Assembly: GCA_964521715.1 (NCBI GenBank)
Contig: CAZFSS010000002.1
Coordinates: forward strand, 151,828-215,827
From: an uncultured candidatus Brocadiaceae bacterium
Lineage (GTDB): Bacteria; Planctomycetota; Brocadiia; SM23-32
DNA length: 64,000 nt
Direction: 5' to 3'
Part shown: positions 4,854-59,700 of the stretch, one piece after another
How positions within the stretch are numbered: position 1 is the stretch's first letter
How the letters are laid out: the number at the start of each line of letters is the position of its first letter
Position numbers and translations under genes: made by a program
Notes under the pieces: model-generated
The model's database searches: none
The model's input: the letters and a program-made list of their open reading frames with translations, nothing else
What the model was told of the DNA's origin: nothing

Positions 4854-5834
4854 TCATCGCCCGAGCGCTGCGACTCGGGCGGCCACGTCGCCAACGGACG
4901 GCCAGGCGCCCCCGGGCGCCCGGACCACCTGTACCCTCGGCCCGCGCGGCGCCCACACGCAGGGATCCGTCGGGCCGAAGACCGCCACGGTCGGCGCGCC
5001 CAGGGCGGCGGCCAGATGGGAGACCCCGCTGTCGTTCCCCACGTAGCAGCCGCAGTGCGTCAGAAGCGCGGCCACCCGGCCCAGGTCCAGGCCGGCTGCC
5101 CTGGCCAGCGGCACGCGCAACGGCAGGCGGTCCGCCACTTCCCGGCAGGCCTGCTCGTCCGCCGGGCCTTCGATCAGCAGGATCGGCCTCTCAAGCAGCT
5201 CAGCCAGGCGGGCGAAACGCTCGGGCGGCCAGCACTTCCGCCGCCCCCCGCTTCCCGGATGGATTGCGACCGGCCTGCGGCCCGCAGCCGGGCTGCGGCC
5301 CGCAGGCAAACGCGATGCAAGCCACCGCCCGGCCCGCTCGCCTTCCTCGCGCGGCACGCGTACGTCGGGGAACGGCAGGGGCTCCGGGGCGGGATCCGCA
5401 ACGGCCCGGGCGAAGTGCACGGCCGCATGACCGGGTCCCGGCGGCCGGACGGGCCACGTCAACACGGGGCCGGGGCAGAGACGCCGCACGTTGCTCACCA
5501 GGGCCTCATCCGTGCCGGAGCTGTAGATCACCACGGCGTGCGCCTGCGCGAAGGCGCCCGTGGGGTCCTCAGCCGCGCCGGCGATGAACAGCGGCGTCAG
5601 CAGCGGGGAGTCGAACCGCACGACGCGGACGGGGAAGGCGAGCAACGGCGCGATCTGCTCCGCCCAGGCGGAACCGACCAGCGTGATCGCCGCACGCGGC
5701 GCTTCCCGCAGCATCACCTGGAGCGCGGGCACTGTCAGCAGCGTATCCCCCAGGCCGCCGGGCCTGACGATGGCAACACGCGCCTCCCCGCGCCGGGGCA
5801 AGCCCGCCGCCACTTCCTGCCGCAGCCGCATGGC
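4854..5834 (-). CDS. Glycosyltransferase family 9 (heptosyltransferase-like)
   Basis: GLGDTLLTVPAL near the N-terminus and GNDSGVSHLAAALGAPTVAVFGPTDP near the C-terminus match GT9 (RfaF/WaaC family). Start assumed at MRLRQ. Confidence 0.7.
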   Translation of the reverse strand, partial: AMRLRQEVAAGLPRRGEARVAIVRPGGLGDTLLTVPALQVMLREAPRAAITLVGSAWAEQIAPLLAFPVRVVRFDSPLLTPLFIAGAAEDPTGAFAQAHAVVIYSSGTDEALVSNVRRLCPGPVLTWPVRPPGPGHAAVHFARAVADPAPEPLPFPDVRVPREEGERAGRWLASRLPAGRSPAAGRRPVAIHPGSGGRRKCWPPERFARLAELLERPILLIEGPADEQACREVADRLPLRVPLARAAGLDLGRVAALLTHCGCYVGNDSGVSHLAAALGAPTVAVFGPTDPCVWAPRGPRVQVVRAPGGAWPSVGDVAARVAALGR

Positions 5835-5959
5835 GCCCTCCTTGCATTCCGGCGCTTCGCTCGCCCTCGGGCCGACGTGATGGGTTCTGCTGGAGGCTCC
5901 AAGAAAAGGAGCCACTTCCCACTGGGGGCGGTGGCTCCTGAGTCTGCGGGCTGTCAGCG

Positions 5960-6295
5960 CTATTGCCCGTAAGCGACCGTCGTGAACTTCGCGTAGATGC
6001 CCAGGATGTTCTCGAACCTGTAGTCCGCGTAGTGCACTTTGGTGATGCCGCCGTTGTGGGCGGCCTTCTGGATGCTGGCGTCGCCGATGGCGATCAGGCC
6101 CAGTATGTTCTCAGCCGTCGCTTCGCCGCGCTTCTCGGTGATCGGCGTCTGGTCGTAGTTCAGGCTGAGCGGGGCGTCAACCTGCGCGAATAGCATGCCG
6201 TGACCAGGCACAACGGGCGCCGCGTAGTACCCGGCGCAGCCGACCGACAGCCAGAGAACCCCACAGAGGCCGACAAGGCACGCATACCGTTTCAT
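5960..6295 (-). CDS. TRL-like family lipoprotein
   Basis: Signal peptide plus lipobox (LSVGC) and a C-terminal GDASIQKAAHNGGITKVHYADY pattern typical of the TRL-like domain. Start at MKRYACLVG. Confidence 0.55.
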   Translation of the reverse strand: MKRYACLVGLCGVLWLSVGCAGYYAAPVVPGHGMLFAQVDAPLSLNYDQTPITEKRGEATAENILGLIAIGDASIQKAAHNGGITKVHYADYRFENILGIYAKFTTVAYGQ

Positions 6296-6593
6296 CGCCG
6301 TTTCTCCTCCAAAGAGCTGTAATCCCCGCCTGCAAAGCCACAATCTCCTGCCGGGTCACGTCTGTCCGCCGTCGCCGATCACCTCCTTCCCCGGACCCCA
6401 GCAAAGCCGGCAAACTGTCCTTTTACACCGGGGGCACGCGAATGTCAAGCAGGTGACAGCGCACGCCCGGTTGCCCCGGGCGCGCTCCAACCGGCGCTTG
6501 CCGGCCCCTTTGAAAACGCGCCCCGCCTTGGGCTAGAATGTAAGCGCTGGGTTCTGGGATGCGCACATTTCTGCCAAGCTCGCAGGTATCCAG

Positions 6594-7199
6594 ATGGCAA
6601 CCGAACCGATTCCGGCCGGGCAAGAGGAGTACGAGGAAGAGGAGGAGCGGCCGCGCAAACACCTCTCGGAGCGGCTGCTGGAGTCGCGCATCATCCTGCT
6701 GAACGAGACCATAACCTCCGAGCTGACCGAGGACGTGACGGCCAGGCTCCTGATCCTGGAGGCCGAGGACGGCAAGGCGCCGATAGACGTCTACATCAAC
6801 TCGCCGGGCGGCGGGGTGGACGCGGGGTTCGCCATCTACGATATGGTTCGCTTCATCTCCGCCCCGGTGCGGTGCATATGCACGGGCCTGACCGCCAGCG
6901 CCGCCGTCCTCGTGCTGCTGGCGGCCCCAAAGAAGGCCCGACTGAGCCTGCCCAACGCGCGGTTCCTCATCCACCAACCCTCCGGAGGCGTGGGAGGAAC
7001 CACCGCGGACGTCCAGATCGAAGCCACCCAGATACTGAAGATACGGCAGCGCATAAACGCCCTGATAGCCGAAGAAACGGGCCAGCCCATTGAGAAGGTC
7101 GAAGAGGACACCCGCCGCAACTACTGGATGGACGCCGAGGAGGCCGTCGAGTACGGGCTGATCACTAAGATCGTCACTGCCAAAAAGGACCTCAAGTAA
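6594..7199 (+). CDS. clpP: ATP-dependent Clp protease proteolytic subunit
   Basis: The motifs IYINSPGG, TGLTASAAVLVLLAAP and FLIHQPSGG place the Ser-His-Asp residues in ClpP context. 201 aa. Confidence 0.9.
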   Translation: MATEPIPAGQEEYEEEEERPRKHLSERLLESRIILLNETITSELTEDVTARLLILEAEDGKAPIDVYINSPGGGVDAGFAIYDMVRFISAPVRCICTGLTASAAVLVLLAAPKKARLSLPNARFLIHQPSGGVGGTTADVQIEATQILKIRQRINALIAEETGQPIEKVEEDTRRNYWMDAEEAVEYGLITKIVTAKKDLK

Positions 7200-7302
7200 T
7201 CCGCGCCTGGCCGGGCGTGCGACGGCGCGACTGGTCGACAGTCATGCGGTTACGGATGCTCCGGCGGGGCCCGCGGAGGGCGCGGTGCAAGGAGGCCGTG
7301 AC

Positions 7303-9390
7303 ATGAGGGCATGCCGAACCAACGCAATGATCTGGGTGCTCGCCGGGCTGCTGCTGTGGGGCGCGGCCGCCGGAGCACAGGAACAGGCTCCCGCCGAACA
7401 GCCGCCCCAGCCGCCGCAGGAGCGCCCGGCCAGTTACTCCGTGCGCGAGCTCTCCCACGAGACCTACCAACTGGGCTGCATTGACATGCAGAGCTGCGTC
7501 CAGATCCTGGGCCAGCTCGGCTACAACACGAGCGCGCCCTCAGGGCAGGTCCAAATGGCTCAGTTGCCGGCCGTCTTCCCCATGCCCTCTGGCAGCCCGC
7601 AGAGCATCGTCGTCGACCTCGGCGACGTGTCCAAGACGAAACTCACAGGCGAGACCCTGTCCGCCCCCGAGAACCGGCTGATGATCCTCTACCACAGCAG
7701 CCAGAGCGAAGAGGTGGCGCAGCTGAAGGACCTGCTCGAGGACACAATCGACGTCCCGGAGCGCATGGTGCTGATCGAGGGCATGGTCATCGAGCTGACC
7801 GAAGACAGCCTGAAGGAACTGGGAGTCGAACTGCGGGCCTACGGCGGCGAGCTGCAATGGGGCCAGTTCGCCTCCGAGGTGGGGGGTACAGGGGAGAGCC
7901 AGGCCGCCCTATACCTCTTCCACAACCGGACCGACCTGGCCGCGCCCGCCGACCTGAGGCACCGCGTTGAGGCGACCATCCGCGCCGTCGTCCAGGAGGG
8001 AGGCGCAGAGGTGCTCTCCAGCCCCTCCGTCCTCGTCCTGAACAACCAGAACGCCAACATCCAGGTGACCAGGCAGTTGCCAGTGTTCAATACAGTCCTC
8101 ACCCAGACCACCACAAATGTCAACATAATATGGGAAACCGTCGGCATCATCATGAACATCAAGCCCCGGGTGAGCACTGACGATTCGAACATCGCCATGC
8201 AGATCCTGGTCGAGGTCAGCGAGTCGCCCGAGTTCATCACCGTGCTGACGGGCGAGCGGGAACAAGCGCTCGCGCCCCTGATCGAGCGCCGGGTGGTGCA
8301 GACCGTCGCGCGCGTGCAGGACAACACGCCCTTCATCATAGGCGGCCTGATCCGCAACGAGAAGGCGAAGTCCACCGACAGGATCCCCTTCCTCTCCCGC
8401 ATCCCCCTGCTGGGGAACCTCTTCCAGAGCAAGAGCGACCGGCGCGAGAAGCGGGAGGTCATCATCGTACTCACGCCGCGCGTCATCAAGACGGCCAGCT
8501 CTCACCGCCCCGTCCTGCCGAAGGACACGGACCAGTTCGACTTCCTGGACAGCCGCCTGTTCCGCAACTCCTACCGCCTGAAGGCCGAGGACATCTTCGA
8601 CCTGGCCTTCCTCGAGGAGAACCAGACGATACTGGACGCCATGGCCCGCGTGCGCGGGTTCGTGGTCAGGCACCCCGAGTACGCCAAGCGCTCCCCCTTC
8701 CGGGAGATGGCCCAGGGCAGCATACCGGGCGAGGACGCCATTGTGATCCGCATGATCTACGAGGTCGCCAAGAAGCTCGAGCTGCACGAGCGAATCAAGA
8801 CGGAGCGGATGATCGTCTTCCAGGCGGACCCCGACAAACCCGCCGGCTTCAGCGTCAAGTTCCTCAAGCGACTGCTCGAACAGAGCAGCCCTGACGGGAC
8901 GATCGCCGGCTACTTCGACCGGCCGTATCCGAAGGAAGTGCTCTTCTTCCGCTACCAGCTGCCCATGGGCGACGGCATGAAGGAGGTGCTCTGCTCCCCG
9001 GTGGCGCATCTGGAGCGCAGGCTGGTCCAGAACCAGGACGAGGTGCAGGAAGTCCTGCAGGAGATCAACCGGCTCTACGACGATTACACCTACCATGAGT
9101 TCGCGTTCGTCCTGGACACGGACGCCGATCTGGTGCGGCTCAAGGCGGCCGTGGCGCTGCGCGAGGTGGCCAAGGTGAACAACTTCGAAGACCTGCTGGT
9201 GCTGCGCAGTTTCCGCGTGGGCCGCAGGATCGCAATGCCCCAGATGGAGGAGACCGAGAGGATCTTCCTGGTTGACCACGAAGTGGCCGAATACTTCTTC
9301 AAGAGCGACTACTACTACGCCGCCTTGAAAGCAACGCTGGAGCAGGGCTATAAGATCGTCGAGCAGGCCCTGGCGACGGAGGGACAATGA
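7303..9390 (+). CDS. Secretin-family outer membrane protein (GspD/PilQ-like) with ~300-aa C-terminal extension
   Basis: AAGGAGG RBS at 7288-7294 then ATG at 7303. Signal peptide present. The secretin core signature IPFLSRIPLLGNLFQSKSDRREKREVIIVLTPRVI matches the canonical C-terminal secretin motif. About 300 residues follow the secretin domain. Confidence 0.75.
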   Translation: MRACRTNAMIWVLAGLLLWGAAAGAQEQAPAEQPPQPPQERPASYSVRELSHETYQLGCIDMQSCVQILGQLGYNTSAPSGQVQMAQLPAVFPMPSGSPQSIVVDLGDVSKTKLTGETLSAPENRLMILYHSSQSEEVAQLKDLLEDTIDVPERMVLIEGMVIELTEDSLKELGVELRAYGGELQWGQFASEVGGTGESQAALYLFHNRTDLAAPADLRHRVEATIRAVVQEGGAEVLSSPSVLVLNNQNANIQVTRQLPVFNTVLTQTTTNVNIIWETVGIIMNIKPRVSTDDSNIAMQILVEVSESPEFITVLTGEREQALAPLIERRVVQTVARVQDNTPFIIGGLIRNEKAKSTDRIPFLSRIPLLGNLFQSKSDRREKREVIIVLTPRVIKTASSHRPVLPKDTDQFDFLDSRLFRNSYRLKAEDIFDLAFLEENQTILDAMARVRGFVVRHPEYAKRSPFREMAQGSIPGEDAIVIRMIYEVAKKLELHERIKTERMIVFQADPDKPAGFSVKFLKRLLEQSSPDGTIAGYFDRPYPKEVLFFRYQLPMGDGMKEVLCSPVAHLERRLVQNQDEVQEVLQEINRLYDDYTYHEFAFVLDTDADLVRLKAAVALREVAKVNNFEDLLVLRSFRVGRRIAMPQMEETERIFLVDHEVAEYFFKSDYYYAALKATLEQGYKIVEQALATEGQ

Positions 9391-20159: not shown

Positions 20160-20379
20160 TCCGGATCCTCCGCTTCTGCCCTCTATCCCTCGCCCCTCGC
20201 AGGCCGGCGGTCCGTCCGCCGTACGGCGGCCAAGCCCTGCACGAACGGGGCTGCTGGACGACTGGCCCAGCATCTTACCACACCGGCGCGGTGAGGTGCG
20301 AAGTCGCGCCCCCTCCCCGCCGCAATCCTTGCCCCTGCCTTGCCCGCCGAAGCCCTCGCGGAGGCGGGTCGTGCTCTTG

Positions 20380-20545
20380 CTCTTACTCCTGCTCCGCGCG
20401 CCCGCTGTTCCCCTTCGGTTGCGCTCAGGGCCTTCGGGTTGCTCCCGCCGTTCGGCGGGCAAGCGTTGTTCGTTGTTCGTCGTTACTGGCAACTGGCCAC
20501 TGGCAACTGGCCACTGCCGTTACCCTCCCACTGCTTGACGCCCCA
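20380..20545. repeat. Word-based intergenic repeat element (copy R2), direct repeat of R1 on the other side of the ADH gene
   Basis: CTCTTGCTCTTACTCCTGCTC ... GTTGTTCGTTGTTCGTCGTTACTGGCAACTGGCCACTGGCAACTGGCCACTG matches R1 in the same orientation. Confidence 0.7.
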
Positions 20546-20620: not shown

Positions 20621-21973
20621 ATGGCTCTCTTCGACGATCAGCAGAGCGGGCAAGCTCTTGAGCCGCCCTCGGATGCACCGCTGGCCACGCGGATGCGGCC
20701 GCGCACGCTAGAGGAATTCGTCGGCCAGGAGCACTTCGTCGGCGAGGGGCAGCTTCTCTGGCGGATGATCAAGGCCGACCGGCTCGCCTCCCTCATCTTC
20801 TACGGCCCGCCGGGCACGGGCAAGACGGCGCTGGCCTACGTGATCGCCCGCCGGACGCAGGCGCACTTCGAGCCCATCGACGCCACCACGTCCAACGTGG
20901 CCGAGCTCCGCGAGGTCCTTTCGAAGGCCGTCGAGCGCAAGGGGCGCGGCCAGCGGACCGTCCTGTTCATCGACGAGCTGCACCGCTTCAACCGCGCCCA
21001 GCAGGACGTGCTGCTGCCGGATGTCGAGAAGGGGACCGTCATCCTGATCGGCGCAACGACCCACAATCCCTTCCACTCGATCAACTCGCCGCTCCTGTCG
21101 CGCTCGCAGATATTTCAGTTCAAGCCGCTCGGCCGCGAGCACCTGCGCGAGCTGTTGCTTCAAGCGCTGCGGGACGAGGAGCGCGGGCTGGGCCGGCATC
21201 CCGTGGACCCCGACGACGACGCCCTCGACCTCCTTGCCGAGATGTGCGACGGCGACGCCCGGCGCGCGCTCAACTCGCTCGAGGTCGGCGTGCTGAGCAC
21301 CGAGCCGGGGCCGGGCGGGCGGGTCCGCTTCGACCTGGCCCTCGCCGAAGCCTCCATCCAGCGCAAGGCCCTCGTCTACGACCGCGACGAGGACGAGCAT
21401 TACGACACTGCCAGCGCCTTCATCAAAAGCATGAGGGGCAGCGACCCGGACGCCGCCCTCTACTGGATGGCCAAGATGCTCGAAGGCGGAGAGGACCCGC
21501 GCTTCATCGCGCGCCGCATCGTCATCTGCGCCGCAGAGGACGTGGGCAACGCCGCCCCTTACGCCCTGGTGCTGGCGACCGCCGCTCAGCAGGCCGTCGA
21601 GTTCGTCGGCATGCCAGAGGCGAGGATCCCCCTCGCCCAGGCCGTCACCTACATCGCCTGCGCGCCGAAGAGCAACGCCTCCTGCATGGCCATTGACGCG
21701 GCGGAGAAGGACGTGCGGGAGGGCCGCACGCTCCCAGTGCCCGACCATCTGAAGGACGCCAGCTATCCGGGCGCCGAGCGCCTCGGGCACGGCAAGGGCT
21801 ACAAGTACGCGCACAGCTACGAGGGGCACTGGGTAGACCAGGACTACATCCCCACCACGCGCATCTACTATCGCCCGACCGAGCAGGGGCACGAGAAGAA
21901 CCTCAAGGCCCGCCTCGACGCCATCCGCAAGGCCCGCGGAATCGAAGACAAGCCGCAGGACGACGCCAGGTAA
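20621..21973 (+). CDS. rarA: Replication-associated recombination protein A (AAA+ ATPase RarA/MgsA)
   Basis: Walker A GPPGTGKT, Walker B LFIDELHRF, sensor motifs and the MgsA C-terminal domain. 450 aa. Confidence 0.9.
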   Translation: MALFDDQQSGQALEPPSDAPLATRMRPRTLEEFVGQEHFVGEGQLLWRMIKADRLASLIFYGPPGTGKTALAYVIARRTQAHFEPIDATTSNVAELREVLSKAVERKGRGQRTVLFIDELHRFNRAQQDVLLPDVEKGTVILIGATTHNPFHSINSPLLSRSQIFQFKPLGREHLRELLLQALRDEERGLGRHPVDPDDDALDLLAEMCDGDARRALNSLEVGVLSTEPGPGGRVRFDLALAEASIQRKALVYDRDEDEHYDTASAFIKSMRGSDPDAALYWMAKMLEGGEDPRFIARRIVICAAEDVGNAAPYALVLATAAQQAVEFVGMPEARIPLAQAVTYIACAPKSNASCMAIDAAEKDVREGRTLPVPDHLKDASYPGAERLGHGKGYKYAHSYEGHWVDQDYIPTTRIYYRPTEQGHEKNLKARLDAIRKARGIEDKPQDDAR

Positions 21974-22006
21974 CCACAACGACACAACGAGCACGACGAG
22001 GCACGG
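21974..22006. repeat. Left arm of inverted repeat flanking the GxxExxY gene (AACCACAACGACACAACGAGCACGACGAGGCAC)
   Basis: Its reverse complement matches 22418..22450 at about 80% identity, and it matches the left arm of the hairpin element at 23605..23700. Confidence 0.65.
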
Positions 22007-22008
22007 AG

Positions 22009-22413
22009 TTGGGAGAAGGGGTGCAGTTCGAGCCGGTCCCGCCGGAGACAGAGGCCGTTGCGGCGAACGTCATCGAGGCCGCATTCCGCGTCCACCGCGC
22101 CTTGGGCCCGGGCCTGCTCGAATCTGCCTACGAGGCCTGCGTGTGTCACGAACTAGGCAAGTTGGGCGTCCCATTCGAGCGCCAGATCGACGTCCCCCTC
22201 GAATACGACGGCGTCCGCCTGGGTATAGGTCTACGCCTGGACCTGCTGGTCGGTGAGCGCGTCGTCGTTGAACTGAAAGCCGTGGAGAGGATCCAGCCGC
22301 TCCATGAAGCCCAGTTGCTGACGTACATGAAGTTGACGGGGGTGCGTCTCGGGCTGCTCCTCAACTTCGACGTGAAGCAGTTGAAGGACGGCATAGTGAG
22401 GATGGTCCTGTGA
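22009..22413 (+). CDS. GxxExxY family protein (PD-(D/E)xK-like)
   Basis: 134 aa with the motif GLLESAY (G-x-x-E-x-x-Y) and the overall pattern of the GxxExxY family. Bracketed by inverted repeats. Confidence 0.7.
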   Translation: MGEGVQFEPVPPETEAVAANVIEAAFRVHRALGPGLLESAYEACVCHELGKLGVPFERQIDVPLEYDGVRLGIGLRLDLLVGERVVVELKAVERIQPLHEAQLLTYMKLTGVRLGLLLNFDVKQLKDGIVRMVL

Positions 22414-22417
22414 TGCC

Positions 22418-22450
22418 CGTCAACGTCGTGGGCGTCGTGTCGTCGTGGTT
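22418..22450. repeat. Right arm of inverted repeat flanking the GxxExxY gene (GTCAACGTCGTGGGCGTCGTGTCGTCGTGGTTCC)
   Basis: Reverse complement of the 21974..22006 arm. Contains CGTCGTGTCGTCGTGGTT, the exact complement of the left arm of the 23605..23700 hairpin. Confidence 0.65.
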
Positions 22451-22464
22451 CCCGTAGAGGTGCA

Positions 22465-23604
22465 GTGGGGGGCATGTTCAGGAAGAGGCCACAGGCAGCG
22501 CGGCGCTGGTGCCCGAAGTGCAACGAGCCGATGGGGCCGATGCGCATCGAGGGCACCGAGGCCGACCTGTGCCTGAAGTGCATGGGCATGTGGTTCGAGG
22601 CCGGCGAGCTCTCGCGCGCCTCCGGGCTGAAGATCACCGAGGCACCCACCGGCAGCGCGCTGGCCGGCGCCAGGCGCACGCCCTACCGCTGCCCCTCCTG
22701 CGCCGTCCCCCTGTACGAACGCGAGCTCGACCCCGGCTCCGAGATCCTCATCGACCAGTGCCCCAGGTGCTCGGGCCTGTTCCTCGACCGCGACGAGTTC
22801 GGCCGCGCCCAGAGCTACTTCCGCGCCAAAGGCGCCCCGCGGCTCAAGAGGCGGCGCCCCACGGAGCCGCCGCGCCGCCCCGTCTACACCACGGCCAGCG
22901 ACATAGACGAGGACGGCACGGGCGCCGTCTTGTTCCAGTTCATGACGGGCCTGCCGCTCGAAGTCGGCATGGCCACCACGATCTTCCCGTTCCTGACGGT
23001 CGGGCTGCTGCTGGTCAACACGGCGGCCTTCGTCCTTGCGGCGACCGAGGGCCTGCGGGCGTCGGTGTTCGGATGGGGGCTCGTGCCGTCCGAGGTGCTC
23101 GGGGGACACCGGCTCTACACCTTCCTTACCTCGATGTTCATGCACGGCGGCGTGATGCACCTGGTCGGCAACATGTATTTCCTGTACTTGGTGGGGGACA
23201 ACCTGGAGGAGCGGCTGGGGCGGCTGAAGCTCCTCGGGCTCTACCTTCTGTGCGGGCTGATGGCCGGCGTGGCGCACGTGGTCGGCAATCCCCACTCGAC
23301 GGTGCCGGCCGTCGGCGCGAGCGGGGCGATCTCCGGCCTGATCGCCGCTTACGCAGTGTTCTTCCCGCGCGCGCGGTTCGTGATCCGGTGGTTCTGGTTC
23401 TTCTGGTATCACGTCAAGTTCGGCGTGCCGGCGTGGGGGTACTTCGTCTTCTGGGTGTTGCTTCAGGTCTTCTTCGCGTCGCTGGGCTTGCCGGGCGTGG
23501 CGTGGTGGGCGCACGTGGGGGGCTTTGCGTGCGGGATTGCAGTCGCGTGCTTCGTGCGCTGGCACGAGATGCAGCAGAAACCCTTGCAACCCGCGCGCCG
23601 GTGA
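22465..23604 (+). CDS. Rhomboid family intramembrane serine protease with N-terminal double zinc-ribbon domain
   Basis: Two CxxC...CxxC ribbons (CPKC...CLKC; CPSC...CPRC), then multi-TM rhomboid core with catalytic GASGAISG and a downstream His (AHVGG). Confidence 0.8.
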   Translation: MGGMFRKRPQAARRWCPKCNEPMGPMRIEGTEADLCLKCMGMWFEAGELSRASGLKITEAPTGSALAGARRTPYRCPSCAVPLYERELDPGSEILIDQCPRCSGLFLDRDEFGRAQSYFRAKGAPRLKRRRPTEPPRRPVYTTASDIDEDGTGAVLFQFMTGLPLEVGMATTIFPFLTVGLLLVNTAAFVLAATEGLRASVFGWGLVPSEVLGGHRLYTFLTSMFMHGGVMHLVGNMYFLYLVGDNLEERLGRLKLLGLYLLCGLMAGVAHVVGNPHSTVPAVGASGAISGLIAAYAVFFPRARFVIRWFWFFWYHVKFGVPAWGYFVFWVLLQVFFASLGLPGVAWWAHVGGFACGIAVACFVRWHEMQQKPLQPARR

Positions 23605-23700
23605 AGACGTCAACCACGACGACACGACGTGCACGACGAGGGCACAGCAATCAGAGACCGGCGTTACGTAGTGGTCGTCGTGCCGTTGTGGTTAGAAGGG
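23605..23700. repeat. Hairpin (inverted-repeat) element of the CACGAC-word family, both arms adjacent (MITE/REP-like)
   Basis: AACCACGACGACACGACGTGCACGACGAGGGCAC ... GTGGTCGTCGTGCCGTTGTGGTT is seen in the sequence. Its arms are homologous to the two arms flanking the GxxExxY gene. Confidence 0.6.
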
Positions 23701-25252
23701 AACGTCCGCACGCGATCTCGAAGTCGTCCACGTTTACGCTGCCCGAGGTGTCGGGCCCGAACTCGAGCCGCACGCACTGCCACTGCGTCCAGTCGAGCGG
23801 GAAGCTGCTGAGGGGGATCTCGACCTCCGCCCATCCGCCCTCCAGCTCCGTCACGCCGACGGCATCGGCAGCGGCAGCGGCCGACTTCCCCGCGGCGTCG
23901 CCCATGACCACGCGGAACGCCTCCGGCGGCCGCGCATCGCCGCGCAGGACGAAGCTGAACGTCCCCCCGGCCTCGCGATACTCCGACAGGTCATTGGGAT
24001 GGTAGGGGCCGAGCTCGACCGACGCCCCGCCCTGCTGCCACATGATGCGGAGGGAGGGCGGCGCCTGGCCGAACAGATCGGGGTCCGCCTTCACCTCAAC
24101 GGCGCCGCGCGTCCTGGGCGACGGGCCGGCGAACGGCGTCTCGCCCGAGCATATGGGGAAGGCGTAGTCGGTCGTCCTGGGGCCGAAGTCGGCGGGGACC
24201 TCCTGGCCCGCGGCGGCGAACGCGTTGAGCTCCTTCATCCACTGCGCGGTGCGAGGGCTGAGCTCGGGGATGACGCGGAAGGTGCCCGGCTCCGGCACGG
24301 GATAGAACCAGTGAAAGCCGTATGCCCGGATGCCTTCGCGGATGATGGCCTTCATGTACCAGACGATCTCGGGGTTCTCGCCGTCCGCGGTGAGGCGGGG
24401 CTCAGCGCCGAACTCGCCCAGGAACAGGGGCTTGCCCACCTCGCGGGCGGCCGCGACCTGCCCGCGCACCATGCGGACGTAGTCCCGCTCCGTGTGCCAG
24501 TTGTAAGTCCACGGGTCGTTCGTGTAGGCGTGGATGCTGGTGATGTCGATGCCGCGGGAGGCGTTGATGTTGACCCAGCCCCGGCGGCTCTCAGGGGTGT
24601 CCGGCCAGTGCATGCCGCCGTCCACGCCGCTGCTGATGAGGTGATTGGGGTCGACGGCCTTCAGGTCCGCGGCGGCCTGCTCGTAGAAGCGCCTGGTCCC
24701 CGGCAGATCGTCCGGACTGCCGCGGTACTCGTTGGCCACCTCCCAGAAGAGGATCTGCGTCTCGTCCTTGTAGCGCGCGCAGAAGTCCTGGACGAATTCC
24801 TTCCAGGCGCGGTAGGCTTCGCTATCGACGTCGAACCTGCTGCCGGGCGCGGCGCTGGCGGGCAGTTCCGTGAAGGTGAGGATCAGGTATATCCCGTCGG
24901 TCCTGCATGGATCGACGAACACCCGGTCGAACTCACGGTAGAAGGCGTCGCGGTCCTGCCGCCATCTGTCGTAGGTGGCGGCATTCTCGCCCTCGCCGGT
25001 GCCGGGGACCCACGTGCGGATGGCGTTGAAGCCGTAGTCCTTGCAGTTGCGCAGGCCTGATGCGAACCACGGCCCGTTGAACTTGAACCAGTGGCCCACG
25101 GCCGGGTCGCAGCAGTTGGCCCGAATCGAGAAGGGCCGTCCGTCCTTGCAGAACGTGCCGTCCCTGATCGTCAGGAAGCCCCGCTGCGGGCCGTCACCCG
25201 CCGCGACGCCTGCGCCCAGAACCGCGACGGCCGCCGCCACTGCGCCGCACAC
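23651..25252 (-). CDS. Glycoside hydrolase family 5 (clan GH-A) protein with C-terminal beta-sandwich domain, secreted
   Basis: Catalytic acid/base motif ILFWEVANE and nucleophile motif PLFLGEFG are present, with a signal-like N-terminus. The start is uncertain: GTG at 25252 is proposed, and the track ORF extends to 25612. Confidence 0.7.
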   Translation of the reverse strand: MCGAVAAAVAVLGAGVAAGDGPQRGFLTIRDGTFCKDGRPFSIRANCCDPAVGHWFKFNGPWFASGLRNCKDYGFNAIRTWVPGTGEGENAATYDRWRQDRDAFYREFDRVFVDPCRTDGIYLILTFTELPASAAPGSRFDVDSEAYRAWKEFVQDFCARYKDETQILFWEVANEYRGSPDDLPGTRRFYEQAAADLKAVDPNHLISSGVDGGMHWPDTPESRRGWVNINASRGIDITSIHAYTNDPWTYNWHTERDYVRMVRGQVAAAREVGKPLFLGEFGAEPRLTADGENPEIVWYMKAIIREGIRAYGFHWFYPVPEPGTFRVIPELSPRTAQWMKELNAFAAAGQEVPADFGPRTTDYAFPICSGETPFAGPSPRTRGAVEVKADPDLFGQAPPSLRIMWQQGGASVELGPYHPNDLSEYREAGGTFSFVLRGDARPPEAFRVVMGDAAGKSAAAAADAVGVTELEGGWAEVEIPLSSFPLDWTQWQCVRLEFGPDTSGSVNVDDFEIACGRSLLTTTARRPLRNAGL

Positions 25253-25575
25253 CTTAAGAGCCTCTAACAGAATGACCCGTGGCCGCGACGGAGCGGATTT
25301 CCCCGCAGGCCAAGGAGCGTCGGGCGCCGGCGCACTAGGGGTCCGATGCGCCAAGCCTGCGCGACGCCGGAATGCGGCGAAGGACGCCCGTCCCTTCGGG
25401 TTGCGCCTCAGGCCGGCGTCTGCTGTGTCAGGTCTCCTCGCCGTGCCTGACCCTGGCACGGGCTCGGAGCCCTTCCTTGCATCCATCCGGCCGGAGGCGC
25501 AACGCGGCTCACGCGGCATTCCGTCAGAGGCTCTAAGCCCATAGACGCCCGTCATGCCCCTTCCCTCCCCAGGAT

Positions 25576-25670
25576 CGCGCCGTGCCATCCCGAGCGGTCC
25601 GCAGCTCCGCACCTGTCATCCCGAGCGGTCCGCAGCTCCGCACCTGTCATCCCGAGCGGTCCGAAGCTCC
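25576..25670. repeat. 31-bp tandem direct repeat (CATCCCGAGCGGTCCGCAGCTCCGCACCTGT), about 2.7 copies, with internal palindrome CGGTCCGC/GCGGACCG
   Basis: Read directly in the intergenic region upstream (promoter side) of the GH5 gene. Confidence 0.8.
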
Positions 25671-53399: not shown

Positions 53400-53540
53400 C
53401 CTTCACCACGGAGGCACGGAGGCCACCGAGAACGGCGGAATCGGGGGGCACGACCACGCCAACAGACCCGGAGGCTTTGTTGCCGGTACCAGAGCCCTTG
53501 TCTTTCTCCGTGTTCTCCGTGTCTCCGTGGTGGACTTGCT
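53400..53540. repeat. Second copy of the CACGGAG-word hairpin element
   Basis: CACCACGGAGGCACGGAGGCCACCGAGAACGG ... CTTGTCTTTCTCCGTGTTCTCCGTGTCTCCGTGGTGGAC. Confidence 0.65.
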
Positions 53541-54640: not shown

Positions 54641-54662
54641 GTGTTACTCCGTGCTCCGAGAA

Positions 54663-54690
54663 GTAGGGGCACGGCGCGCCGTGCCCCTAC
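54663..54690. repeat. Perfect 28-bp GC-rich palindrome GTAGGGGCACGGCGCGCCGTGCCCCTAC (copy 2; extended to 32 bp by AAGTAG/CTACTT)
   Basis: Identical to 2939..2966. Sits between two minus-strand phage-region genes. Confidence 0.8.
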
Positions 54691-54698
54691 TTCAATGT

Positions 54699-56770: not shown

Positions 56771-59700
56771 TCAGACGTAGAGAGTGACCTCGGACGGACA
56801 GTCGCTGCAGGTGCCGCCCGTCTTCGAGTAGGTGCCGCCCGGACACGATTGCGCGTAGGCCGTCTTCTGATAGATGCAGGTCTTGCCGGTCGGGCCGTGC
56901 GTGACGGTGAACTTCCATGCGCCCGCCAAGCAGGTGAGGTTGCCGGAGGTGCACGAGCCGGCCGCCTGGCTCATAGGCCAGATGCAGTCGCTCGACCGCG
57001 TCCACTTCATCGTGGTGCCGGAGCACGCGACTGCGTGGCCGCACTTCATGCCGGCGAAGCCCGCGCACGAGTAGGTCGCCGCGCATGTGCCCGTGCAGTA
57101 CGACGAGCTCGGGCAAGCCGGGACCGGCGGCGCTTCAGTCGTCGTCGTAGCCTCTTCCGTGGTCGTAGTCGTCCCTGGAAGAGTCGTGGTGCTCGTCGTG
57201 GTTCCCGCCTTCGTCGTAGTCGTCGCACACGGGGCCACAACGCACGTGGCGCCAACCGATTTCTCGCAACTGCCCCCGTCGGCGCAGCCCGCGTCGTTGC
57301 AGTCCAGCTCGCTGTAGACCCCTGCCGGCTCGCAGGGCCAATTGTCGTCCGGGCCCGCCCAAATCTTCGAGCACCCGCCGCCGTACGGGCCGACGGTCAG
57401 GCCCACGTTGTAGCGATTCACGCCCGTGCGGGCGACTTCGACGGCCACATCCTCGTCCTGGTACAGCCAGTAGCAGTCCGGATGCTGCCGGGTGGCCTGC
57501 CAGGTGCCGTTGCCGGCTGCGAAATCTCCGCCCAGCCCGGCGAACGTCACGCAGTAGGCCTCGAGAACGGGCGGCTCGCAGTCGTCGCAGTCCGGCTCCT
57601 CCGTCGTCGTGCTGCCCGGCTCCGTTGTCGTTGTCGTCTTGGGAAGGGTCGTCGTGCTCGTTGTGCTCGTCGTGGTTTCCTGGGGCCCCGGCGCCTGGCC
57701 GCAGCGATAGACGTCGAGCCACATCCCGCAGCACTCGCCCATCTCGGCGTTCTCGTAGCGCCCGTCCGGGCAGTCGGAGCAGTTCCGCGCCATCGGGAAC
57801 TTGAACGTGCAGTCGATCCCATCGCCGTGGACGGTGAAGTACCAGTAGGCCTGGTTGTTCGCTTCATCGTACGTGCAGTCGATTTTGCTGACGGTCAGGC
57901 CGTCCGGCGCCTCGGTATTGAGCCAGAAGCATTCGCTCCGGCCGTTGCTCCAGCGGATCCAGCCGGCCTCGCTCCCGCACCATCCCGGCCACCACGCCTC
58001 ATAGCACTCGTCGCACATGTTCTGGCAGTACGCGCCCGTCGGGCCGCAGGTATCGGCGTAGACCGTGAGCGAGTCGCCGACGTAATCCGCGCAGCAGGCC
58101 GGGCCGGAGACCAGGTCGAATGCCCCCTCCGGGCAGGCCGGCGTGTGGGCCGCCAGCTCGTAGACGCAGTTGAGGCAGCCGCACGTCCCGCAGTAGGCCG
58201 TGAACGTCCAGACCCCCTCGCCGACGCAATGAATTGCATTGAGCGTCCAGCCGGACGGAATCGTCCCCGGGACCGGCTCCCAGACGCACACCTCCTCCAT
58301 CAGCTCGAACCGCGCGGTCCCCGCCGAACACTTCTTGCCCGGCGGCGGCGGGCAGGGATACGCCGGCAGGTCCACATAAAGTTCCGAGCAACAGTAGTTG
58401 CACAGGCCGCCGCAGAGGCACCCATCCAGCTCGTCTCCGTCGTCCGGCCCGAAGACCCAGATCGCGCTCTCGGCCCCGCTCTCCTCACAGGTATTCCCGT
58501 CGAAGCAGCCGCCGTCCTCACACTCCTGCAGTTCGTACTGGCCGGTCGGGTCACACGGCGTGTCCGGCCCCCACGCCACGAACCGGCAGTTTGGGTTCAG
58601 CGCGTAACTGATCTCCCAGCGGCCGTTCGCGGCGTCCCATTCGAGCGCCAGGTCGAGCCCGCCGTAGGTCTGTTCCCAGCGGCAACCGTTCTCCCAGTCC
58701 AGCCAGTGCACGCCGTTCAGAGGGGCGAAGTCGCCCGTCATCTGGCAGAACAGCACCCGGTAGTCGGCCTTTAGCGGCGGCTCGCAGCCGCCCTCCGTGG
58801 TCGTCGTTCCCGGCAGAGCGGTGGTCGTCGCCGGCGGCGTGCTCGTTGTGGCAGGTGGCGTCGTGGTGCCGCCGGGCGCCGTCGTCGTCGTGCCCGGCTC
58901 CGCCGTGGTCGTGGTACCCGCCTCCGCCGTGGTCGTGCTGGCCACTTCCCCCGTCGTGCTGGTCACTGCCGTCAGCGTCGTCGTCGTGCCCGTCGTGCTC
59001 GTCGTGGTTTCCGCGGGCGGCGTCGTCTCCGGCGGCTCGACCGGATGCGTCGTCGTGGTGGGCAGCGGCGCCTCCGTCGTGGTCCACTCCGCGCAGTTCA
59101 CCTCCATCGCGAAGGTGGCCTCGAACGCCGTGTGCCGCCTGTCCGTGTGCACCGGCCGCATGTCCTCCAGCACGACGCCGGCGAACGTGTTTCCGTTTCC
59201 GGTCAGGTCGACGGGCCGCGGGCCGATCTCGCGCTCCAGGTCCTCCAGGTAGCGGGCGAGGTTCTGGGCGCTCACGGCGGCATAGGACCGGACGATGAAG
59301 CGGATGGCCGCGCCGCGCGCCGGCCCGCGCGCCCTGGCCCCGCGCGCCCGCGGGATCTCGCGCAGCGGGTAGTCCCGCTGCATGTCGATCCGCATGCCTT
59401 CAGCGTGGTGACCCAGCGCCACGCCGCCGGCGGCGTAGTCGAGGAGCGTCCCCGTGCCGGCATAGACGTCCGGCGCGTCGGGCGCCGGGAATGACGGCCA
59501 CGGCTCGCTCGACTTCTCCGGGCTGCCGAACTGGAGCGACAGGTCAACGAAGCGGTAGGCGCGCACCTCCGCCAGGCCGTCAACGCAGACGCTCTCGCCG
59601 AACGTGGCCCGCTTGGCGAAGTTGTCCTCGAAGGCAACCGTGCCCGGCGCCGAGCAAGCCAGTGCCCGCAGGCGCTCGTAGGCGTAGCGCTCGGCGTCGC

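Follow-up and report, generated by a model that had tools for sequence, protein, structure and literature searches.

A GxxExxY nuclease gene in the loop of a long inverted repeat: a candidate selfish hairpin cassette with gene-less derivatives

Several described systems combine a small gene with repeats at its borders. For REPIN/RAYT systems (doublets of repetitive extragenic palindromic, REP, sequences forming hairpins, and REP-associated tyrosine transposases), two reports describe a low-copy gene that is inversely flanked by a repeat also found scattered as inverted doublets without the gene. A doublet multiplies as one unit, and the arrangement is chromosomal and largely vertically stable (PMC3337134, PMC3116915). 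The REP unit is a short palindrome with a stem of 5-13 bp and an unpaired GTAG or CGTC tag (PMC3733652). The intervening sequences (IVS) in the 23S rRNA of Coxiella and Leptospira contain terminal repeats of ~28 bp and a small open reading frame (ORF) for S23p; they are distributed sporadically and have long been suspected to be mobile, with the ORF acting in mobility (PMC4990558). PDDEXK_3 is listed as a family of unknown function with multiple horizontal transfers, and the Rpn/YhgA-like family (PDDEXK_2) is listed in a table as putative transposase (PMC3424549). Here we analyse a stretch of 64,000 nucleotides from an uncultured candidatus Brocadiaceae bacterium (assembly GCA_964521715.1, contig CAZFSS010000002.1, positions 151,828 to 215,827 of the forward strand), referred to as the window. 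It contains a PDDEXK_3 gene of the GxxExxY type in the loop of a long inverted repeat, directly behind rarA, and a hairpin made of the same kind of arms without a gene one gene further downstream. On balance we lean towards reading the unit at 21972-22450 as a self-contained selfish hairpin cassette, i.e. a PD-(D/E)XK gene in the loop of a long inverted repeat, with gene-less derivatives in a REPIN/RAYT-like layout.

An initial annotation of the window, made from its letters alone, considered cassette behaviour poorly documented for this family. This agrees with our finding that no searchable paper naming GxxExxY, PDDEXK_3 or PF13366 describes the gene-in-hairpin layout. Flanking repeats are not discussed in the searchable literature naming GxxExxY, although the curators' free-text notes on TIGR04256 might mention them. 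We rate the layout as new for the family and the kind of element, an inverted-repeat-bounded selfish cassette with derivatives resembling REPINs or miniature inverted-repeat transposable elements (MITEs), as already known. Systematic nesting in conserved three-unit inverted repeats gives a very large family of unknown function a concrete, testable role, and it defines a new repeat class that includes proliferating gene-less hairpins.

Anatomy of the window and the encoded nuclease

The initial annotation had proposed that inverted arms bracket the GxxExxY gene and that a solo hairpin of the same family lies downstream at 23605..23700. Both proposals hold. All four arms, A1 to A4, match AACCACRACGRCACRACGNNCACKACG, with AAC at the conserved outer end (AACC together with the next base) and three CACRACG units separated by 1-2 purines. 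The pair A1/A2 encloses the gene and is 83% complementary over 30 nt (21969-21998 versus 22424-22453 in the repeat finder, separation 425 nt). The pair A3/A4 encloses no gene and is 81% complementary over 27 nt (23612-23638 versus 23667-23693, separation 28 nt). A1 and A3 are direct copies of each other with 90% identity, so that by its sequence the hairpin at 23612-23693 is classed as a gene-less member of the repeat family that forms the cassette arms. Its arms are not self-complementary and consist of three direct CACRACG units. The cassette measures 479 nt, with 30-nt arms around a 134-aa ORF. The features are as follows.

21972-22001, plus strand: left arm A1, composed of AAC, three CACRACG units and AGG
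22009-22413, plus strand: GxxExxY / PDDEXK_3 gene, 134 aa, TTG start at 22009
22421-22450, minus strand: right arm A2, the reverse complement of A1
23612-23641, plus strand: left arm A3 of the gene-less hairpin
23642-23665: loop of the gene-less hairpin A3/A4, 24 nt between the full arms, without ORF
23666-23693, minus strand: right arm A4 of the gene-less hairpin
20621-21973, plus strand: RarA/MgsA
22465-23604, plus strand: zinc-ribbon rhomboid protease
23651-25612, minus strand: glycoside hydrolase family 5 (GH5) glycosidase
53404-53532: second gene-less hairpin, sister arm family with CACGGAG units, arms of 29 nt with 86% complementarity, 71-nt loop

The 30-nt arm consensus, with up to 3 mismatches allowed, matches just three of the four arms in the 64 kb, and none of 100 dinucleotide-preserving shuffles gave a match. 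The fourth arm was recovered by a 14-mer search.

The arms are closely fitted to the neighbouring genes. The first bases of A1 complete the RarA stop codon TAA (21971-21973; gTAACCAC). At its inner end A1 reads GAGG, 7 nt ahead of the TTG start, and this motif is placed as a putative ribosome-binding site of the GxxExxY gene. The same arrangement of RarA stop, arm and gene start is repeated at the orthologous loci L207 and L213. A2 begins 7 nt past the stop codon TGA of the GxxExxY gene, A3 begins 7 nt past the rhomboid stop codon, and A4 codes for the final ~14 codons of the converging GH5 ORF. Arms thus supply ORF tails and stop codons of neighbouring genes, and many of the spurious low-complexity peptide tails in annotations are probably arm-derived. 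In relatives, host ORFs extend into arms as well, e.g. folP in L225, and the RarA tail varies with the identity of the hairpin that comes next.

Neither a sigma-70-like promoter nor an intrinsic terminator is predicted at any arm by the respective scans. T-tracts are absent, and the advantage of the hairpins over shuffled sequence in folding is modest (z about -2). An Rfam search of the window region and 20 related loci returned no family for any arm type. The initial annotation had considered that the arms might be common terminator-like sequences. They are indeed common without a gene in Planctomycetota, but they are not plain terminators, because they lack T-tracts and are conserved as sequence rather than as stem. 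The class of intrinsic terminators, a GC-rich stem followed by a T-tract, was rejected because no terminator-like site was predicted at any arm.

The assignment of the 134-aa protein to the GxxExxY family with a PD-(D/E)XK-like fold, also made in the initial annotation, is confirmed by profile matches to TIGR04256 GxxExxY (E 3.9e-41, 140.1 bits, cutoff 35) and PF13366 PDDEXK_3 (E 8.5e-40, 136.2 bits, cutoff 22). The gene caller places the start at GTG 22021, which gives 130 aa instead of the 134 aa from TTG 22009; the TTG is homologous to the ATG start in L213. By exact-match look-up the 130-aa version is on record and the 134-aa version is not. In the 130-aa numbering the motif comprises G31-L-L-E34-S-A-Y37, D74 and E84-L-K86, and G31, E34, Y37, D74, E84 and K86 are invariant among 40 homologues. 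An AlphaFold2 model built from these 40 homologues reaches a predicted local distance difference test score (pLDDT) of 95.8 and a predicted template modelling score (pTM) of 0.89. Foldseek against the PDB returns weak matches (E >= 1.5e-3) to Cas4 SSO0001, alkaline exonuclease, lambda exonuclease, splicing endonucleases and Hjc, with nucleases of the Cas4 and lambda-exonuclease type ranking best, and a sequence search of the PDB gives no meaningful match and no close solved relative. PADLOC yields a weak Cas4 match and no other, PHROGs none. The protein has the look of a minimal, probably active PD-(D/E)XK nuclease.

Counted as representatives of 50%-identity clusters, the family has 32,139 members at E <= 1e-3; tightening the threshold to E <= 1e-10 leaves 13,877. 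Nine entries (P0241-P0249) are proteins of 275-295 aa with two matched stretches, i.e. fused tandem copies of the GxxExxY domain. Carriage of the cassette by phages was considered and rejected: the INPHARED phage collection gives no match, and IMG/VR contains just 7 gene loci and 1 arm match, so that the family is nearly absent from viruses.

Several further observations concern other parts of the window. The second gene-less hairpin at 53404-53532 lies upstream of a GT2 glycosyltransferase gene on the minus strand. Its CACGGAG unit type also flanks GxxExxY genes elsewhere, e.g. in L157, L158 and L191, and the window holds no GxxExxY gene with arms of this type. The divergent spacer between an alcohol-dehydrogenase-like gene (minus strand) and rarA (plus strand) at 20340-20520 is dense in short tandem repeats, namely three copies of GTTGTTC, two of ACTGGCAACTGGCC and, in addition, GCTCTTGCTCTTACTCCTGCTCC. 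A perfect palindrome of 34 nt, GAAGTAGGGGCACGGCGCGCCGTGCCCCTACTTC, is located at 54660-54693. Lone, unpartnered arm-like stretches (CGTCGTGCTCGTCGTGGTT) occur at 57649-57677 and 58981-59009 in surroundings rich in GTCGTCGTG. This region is probably a Thr-rich coding linker on the minus strand, and unpaired matches to the arm pattern can therefore be coding sequence.

Arms around genes and as a dispersed repeat

The initial annotation suggested looking for flanking repeats at other GxxExxY genes, and such repeats are present both in metagenomes and in finished replicons. We took 80 GxxExxY loci from metagenomes, of which 69 genes have enough flanking sequence, and called a gene enclosed if inverted repeats with a minimum length of 20 nt and a minimum identity of 80% lie no more than 150 nt from it. 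By this definition 41/69 genes (59%) are enclosed. Among 1468 control intervals of 380 nt, placed at random in these loci, only 5 are (0.3%), an enrichment of about 175-fold. In finished replicons of isolates the arms are found around or beside the gene as well, and the arrangement is no assembly artefact:

Bacteroides finegoldii: radA / GxxExxY / FAD protein, arms 30 nt, 90%
Sphingomonas parapaucimobilis: fabD / GxxExxY / fabG, arms 25 nt, 92%
Bernardetia: ade / GxxExxY / manC-like, arms 28 nt, 86%
Gemmatirosa: gene between two perfect, complete CGCAGAG hairpins, arms 35 nt, 100%

A further arm-bracketed placement is folP / GxxExxY / folK, and in L215, from another organism, a cassette with CACRACG arms lies between tldD and pmbA, its protein being 69% identical to that of the window. 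The gene-in-hairpin layout holds for the GxxExxY family across several phyla, and the repeat class occurs in Planctomycetota, Bacteroidota, Pseudomonadota, Gemmatimonadota and Sumerlaeota.

All arm families share one design. The outer end is (T)nAAC or CAC, followed usually by three and sometimes by four 7-nt units with spacers of 1-2 nt, and across families the left arm is nearly free of T and the right arm nearly free of A. The unit types are CACRACG, CACRAAG, CACRGAG, CACCAAG, CGCRGAG, CGCCAAG, CGCCGAG and CAGTGAG. Different families can meet in one place: L024 contains a second GxxExxY gene 1.3 kb from the first, with the different arm TGAACCGCCAAGGACGCCAAGAGCGCCAAGGGG (33 nt, 94% complementary). 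Neighbouring genes are co-oriented with the cassette in 46/58 cases upstream and 39/51 downstream, which is near the usual figure for bacterial neighbours. In this gene-centred sampling the three-unit inverted repeats that were found all enclose a GxxExxY gene except one. When same-family gene-less hairpins were sought near the GxxExxY genes examined in metagenomes, this single one turned up in the fetched flanks of up to 3 kb. At L135:34-1011 one GxxExxY gene is the centre of concentric arms, with left arms at 34, 129 and 224 and right arms at 787, 883 and 980. Many GxxExxY-bearing contigs are about 1-2 kb long, and assemblies may break at these repeats.

The gene-less form becomes visible when the arm rather than the gene is searched. 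We scanned one genome per species, 596 Gb in total, with the exact 27-nt arm pattern and obtained at least 120 genome loci; by our estimate about 0.02 matches are expected by chance. Among the matches listed, most belong to Planctomycetota, namely Pirellulales (including the finished chromosome of Lacipirellula limnantheis I41), Planctomycetales and Brocadiia. A few come from metagenome-assembled genomes (MAGs) of Sumerlaeota, Acidobacteriota, Chloroflexota and Betaproteobacteria, for which mis-binning is possible. With up to 4 mismatches the arms of the listed matches make 83 convergent pairs, plus strand followed by minus strand. Of these 83, 77 are hairpins without a gene, 61-198 nt long and with loops that differ widely. 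The other six pairs are long: L024 and L051 hold a GxxExxY gene in the layout of the window, L103 holds a cut copy, and L114 holds an unrelated 147-aa ORF without Pfam family. A membrane-like ORF, again without Pfam family, lies between the arms in L079. The sole recurrent cargo between the arms is GxxExxY.

The initial annotation compared the gene-less hairpin to a MITE, and this likeness is borne out by how the hairpins spread. One MAG contains six copies of a 184-nt hairpin at six unique loci. The copies share a 130-nt loop, and their similarity ends about 15 nt beyond the arms. Hairpins therefore multiply as whole units, and gene-less copies proliferate. The flanks of hairpins tend to prolong the palindrome (TTGAACCAC...GTGGTTCAA). 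Many loops hold a complete hairpin of another low-complexity family, e.g. GGAACCGCCGATGAACGCAGATAAACGC in at least 9 loci (L015, L038, L047, L048, L082, L083, L086, L104 and L117, all with CACRACG arms outside), and the loop seems to be a preferred landing place of other hairpin families.

The arms are not inherited independently of the gene. The nearest protein neighbour shares the arm family in 30/45 cases (7.6 expected by chance) and, in an enlarged set, in 31/56 (9.5 expected). Protein identity is 57.3% within and 53.3% between arm families (permutation p = 5e-4). These comparisons of arm and protein sequences show that arm family and gene are co-inherited. In the comparison of the window with L024 and L051, the arms are identical at 22-25 of 27 positions, whereas the genes share 54-56% nucleotide identity and their third codon positions 27-35%. 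The arms are thus far better conserved than the gene and outlast it.

The pattern of variation within the arms bears on what is being conserved. Across 80 hairpins without a gene, invariance is about 97% at 21 of the 27 arm positions. At the remaining six, which are A/G in the left arm and T/C in the right, the two arms vary independently: there are 117 G.T and 104 A.C pairs, Watson-Crick pairing is no commoner than independence predicts, and no compensatory changes occur at the variable positions. Single hairpins combine the two mismatch types exactly as a binomial predicts, with neither strand bias nor excess clustering. For arms around genes, G.U slightly exceeds A.C on the sense strand (45 versus 29), and both transition mismatches of the window pair are A.C on the sense strand; a test for strand-specific tolerance of wobble pairs was negative. 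The lack of pairing covariation shows selection on the arm sequence and not on base pairing at these positions. A factor that recognises the sequence is thereby favoured over a stem, of RNA or DNA, with a purely structural role.

History of the rarA locus

The orthologous site was traced through the RarA homologues of close relatives, given here with their RarA identity to the window.

L207 (91%), with L213 and L214 at the same locus: A1-type arm after the RarA stop, orthologous GxxExxY gene (82-83% identical), then three tandem gene-less hairpins
L204 (92%), 5342-7393: inserted MNT-HepT toxin-antitoxin pair and DUF6308-like ORF, then a duplicated RarA 3' fragment, A1 and a GxxExxY remnant
L208 (85%): left arm only (TGACCACGACGGCACGACGAG) after the RarA stop, without gene
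L205 (87%): hairpin of another family (GAATGAT units), without gene
L206 (87%): different neighbour gene

In relatives the gene is therefore intact, a remnant or absent, i.e. the site shows the presence/absence polymorphism that the initial annotation proposed to look for, and the cassette has been gained or lost at the orthologous rarA site. The remnant in L204 comprises only the first ~20 codons of GxxExxY, and the duplicated RarA 3' fragment corresponds to 58 aa. Around the whole L204 insertion lie arms that belong to a further family (AATGACAAGT).

The gene is present or decaying only within the clade of 91-100% RarA identity, and sequence comparison places the arm adjoining rarA as older than the gene there. 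Both findings favour a history in which the gene entered where an arm was already present. Alternatively, the gene may have been lost in the outgroups.

Further downstream, the spacer between the rhomboid and GH5 genes of L213 contains the orthologue of the window's gene-less hairpin, which has grown into a series of many arms. Tandem arrays of whole hairpins and of lone right arms are seen at L213:3405-3840 and 4900-5290, so that in this sister lineage the repeat undergoes local expansion. In L205 the corresponding spot is occupied by a Y1 transposase (PF01797) with REP-like repeat arrays on both sides (rhomboid-GH5 spacer, L205:6600-8100), a classical RAYT/REPIN arrangement that looks quite different from the GxxExxY cassette.

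Candidate explanations and comparison with known systems

How would a selfish hairpin cassette operate? A sequence-specific factor would recognise the arms; the most economical candidate is the nuclease that they enclose, which would nick or cut at cognate arms or hairpins. Recombinational repair could then copy the element, whether or not it includes the gene, to a site that is new or empty, with the ~30-bp arms serving as homology. In this lineage the cassette would have entered at the 3' end of rarA. The GxxExxY gene would be expressed by read-through from rarA, since the cassette has no promoter of its own.

The initial annotation went as far as to suggest that the ORF moves as a small cassette between such hairpins. 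That arms and gene form one unit is supported by L024, L051 and L215, unrelated loci where arms of this family bracket related GxxExxY genes, and by the enclosure frequencies; a movement event was not seen. Several findings weigh against the selfish cassette. Neither a transposition event nor an excision product was seen, nor a clean pair of filled and empty sites sharing identical arms. Where a protein recurs unchanged on 7-10 contigs, its neighbours are the same each time, and the same protein in different genomic contexts, which would be a sign of recent hopping, was not found; the location is thus stable over short times and movement must be rare. Inspection of the 12-nt flanks of 77 hairpins and of the surroundings of cassettes revealed no direct repeats, i.e. 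no target-site duplication. About 40% of the GxxExxY genes have no detectable arms under the criteria used. The agreement between arm and protein stems from relatives of at least about 65-70% identity, and at about 55% identity the CACRACG-armed proteins are not monophyletic, a pattern in the sequences that fits co-inheritance better than strict specificity of enzyme for arm. Finally, to our knowledge PD-(D/E)XK enzymes hydrolyse DNA and could not carry out strand transfer unaided. Over longer times the unit does change its location, as the CACRACG cassette between tldD and pmbA indicates.

We tentatively extend the selfish-cassette reading to the family as a whole, a proposal that may well prove too broad. 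GxxExxY proteins would be the dedicated enzymes of an unrecognised, cross-phylum class of hairpin repeats, counterparts of RAYTs built on a PD-(D/E)XK fold. Every paralogue would recognise its own arm family by the three 7-nt units, and gene-less copies would be spread and maintained through its action. The same mechanism could also explain IVS-type elements, because their architecture is near-identical.

Two other explanations deserve weight, and we regard both as unlikely. The first is an RNA-level module similar to the 23S rRNA IVS. The arms would pair in the read-through transcript, and RNase III would cut the stem of ~30 bp, releasing or insulating the GxxExxY mRNA and leaving the host operon message functional; gene-less hairpins would then serve in processing or stabilisation. 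In size and shape the cassette corresponds to the Coxiella IVS of 428-444 nt, with its 28-bp terminal stem, small ORF and RNase III cleavage (PMC4990558). The cassettes lie between co-oriented operon genes (rarA-rhomboid, fabD-fabG, folP-folK, tldD-pmbA), neighbours are mostly co-oriented, the gene lacks its own promoter, and G.U is in slight excess on the sense strand. This is opposed by the absence of compensatory changes, by G.T and A.C mismatches that are equally frequent and occur together in single hairpins, by the two A.C mismatches of the window pair and by the missing Rfam match, and the conservation of the arm sequence far exceeds the needs of a stem. An RNA module is also compatible with a selfish cassette and hence not a full alternative to it.

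The second holds the hairpins to be host elements, e.g. binding sites of a conserved host protein, with GxxExxY as a passenger or homing gene that enters loops by recombination between arms and has no part in the gene-less spread. We give it a similarly small chance. Gene-less copies far outnumber gene-bearing ones among the listed CACRACG pairs, other hairpin families nest in loops, so that the loop is a general landing place, the arm beside the RarA stop is present without gene in L208, and proteins with a common arm family cease to cluster once their identity is down to about 55%. Yet GxxExxY is the only cargo that recurs, all but one of the three-unit repeats in the gene-centred sampling enclose it, and no host factor emerged as a candidate.

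Two further readings, inversion switching and chance adjacency, are all but excluded. In an inverton the repeats would flip the promoter-less gene relative to read-through transcription and switch it ON and OFF, for which ~30-bp flanking inverted repeats and the lack of a promoter would be suitable; both orientations are then expected, but all independent assemblies (window, L001-L003, L207, L213, L214) show a single one, no recombinase adjoins the cassette, and gene-less hairpins with loops of 7-130 nt are left unexplained, which makes this very improbable. Least probable of all is that an ordinary gene simply adjoins generic terminator-like palindromes, because the position of hairpins at gene ends and between converging genes cannot account for the enclosure enrichment, the covariation of arm family with protein, the better conservation of arms than gene, a 27-nt sequence conserved across orders, the absent T-tracts and a folding z of just about -2.

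The comparison with known systems follows from these results. An integron gene cassette, which would belong to a tandem array beside an intI integrase and have one attC site, was rejected: this single gene has an arm on both sides, and the flanking genes, among which an integrase was sought, encode RarA, rhomboid and GH5. Rpn/YhgA-like proteins (PDDEXK_2) have recombination-promoting activity and are likewise PD-(D/E)XK nucleases that are multicopy in some genomes, but they are larger, belong to a different Pfam family, and we know of no three-unit inverted repeats flanking them. Similar to free-standing homing endonuclease genes, the GxxExxY gene is a small nuclease gene that lies between conserved housekeeping genes and is present in some relatives but absent from others. 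In contrast to these, it is embedded in a repeated hairpin and not in a unique target, and the arms are intact after insertion, so that the logic of a target destroyed by insertion does not apply.

With MITEs the elements share short non-coding copies with terminal inverted repeats at many unique loci and rarer gene-bearing copies with the same ends. They differ by the lack of a target-site duplication and of a recognised transposase, and insertions of the cassette family favour hairpin loops and gene 3' ends. The 23S rRNA IVS resembles the cassette in its size of about 430-480 nt, its terminal inverted repeats of ~28-30 bp, its one small ORF and its sporadic distribution. The cassette is located between protein-coding genes (rarA and rhomboid) instead of in an rRNA helix, its ORF is PDDEXK_3 and not S23p, and its arms show no pairing covariation, which argues against selection for a stem.

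REPIN/RAYT systems are compared last. The enzyme is different: GxxExxY is a PD-(D/E)XK nuclease of ~130 aa that matched only PF13366 and TIGR04256, and not a Y1 HUH transposase of the IS200/IS605 type. Unlike the REP unit, a short palindrome tagged with GTAG or CGTC, the arm is a series of three direct units of 7 nt, and one genome can have several GxxExxY paralogues with different arms, as in L024. The layout, as described in the reports cited at the outset, is shared. In both, a low-copy gene is inversely flanked by a dispersed repeat, gene-less doublets multiply as units, and the elements are chromosomal and largely stable. For the GxxExxY cassette this stability is seen across the samples and relatives surveyed. 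GxxExxY cassettes are almost absent from viruses, which is a further likeness to REPINs and RAYTs.

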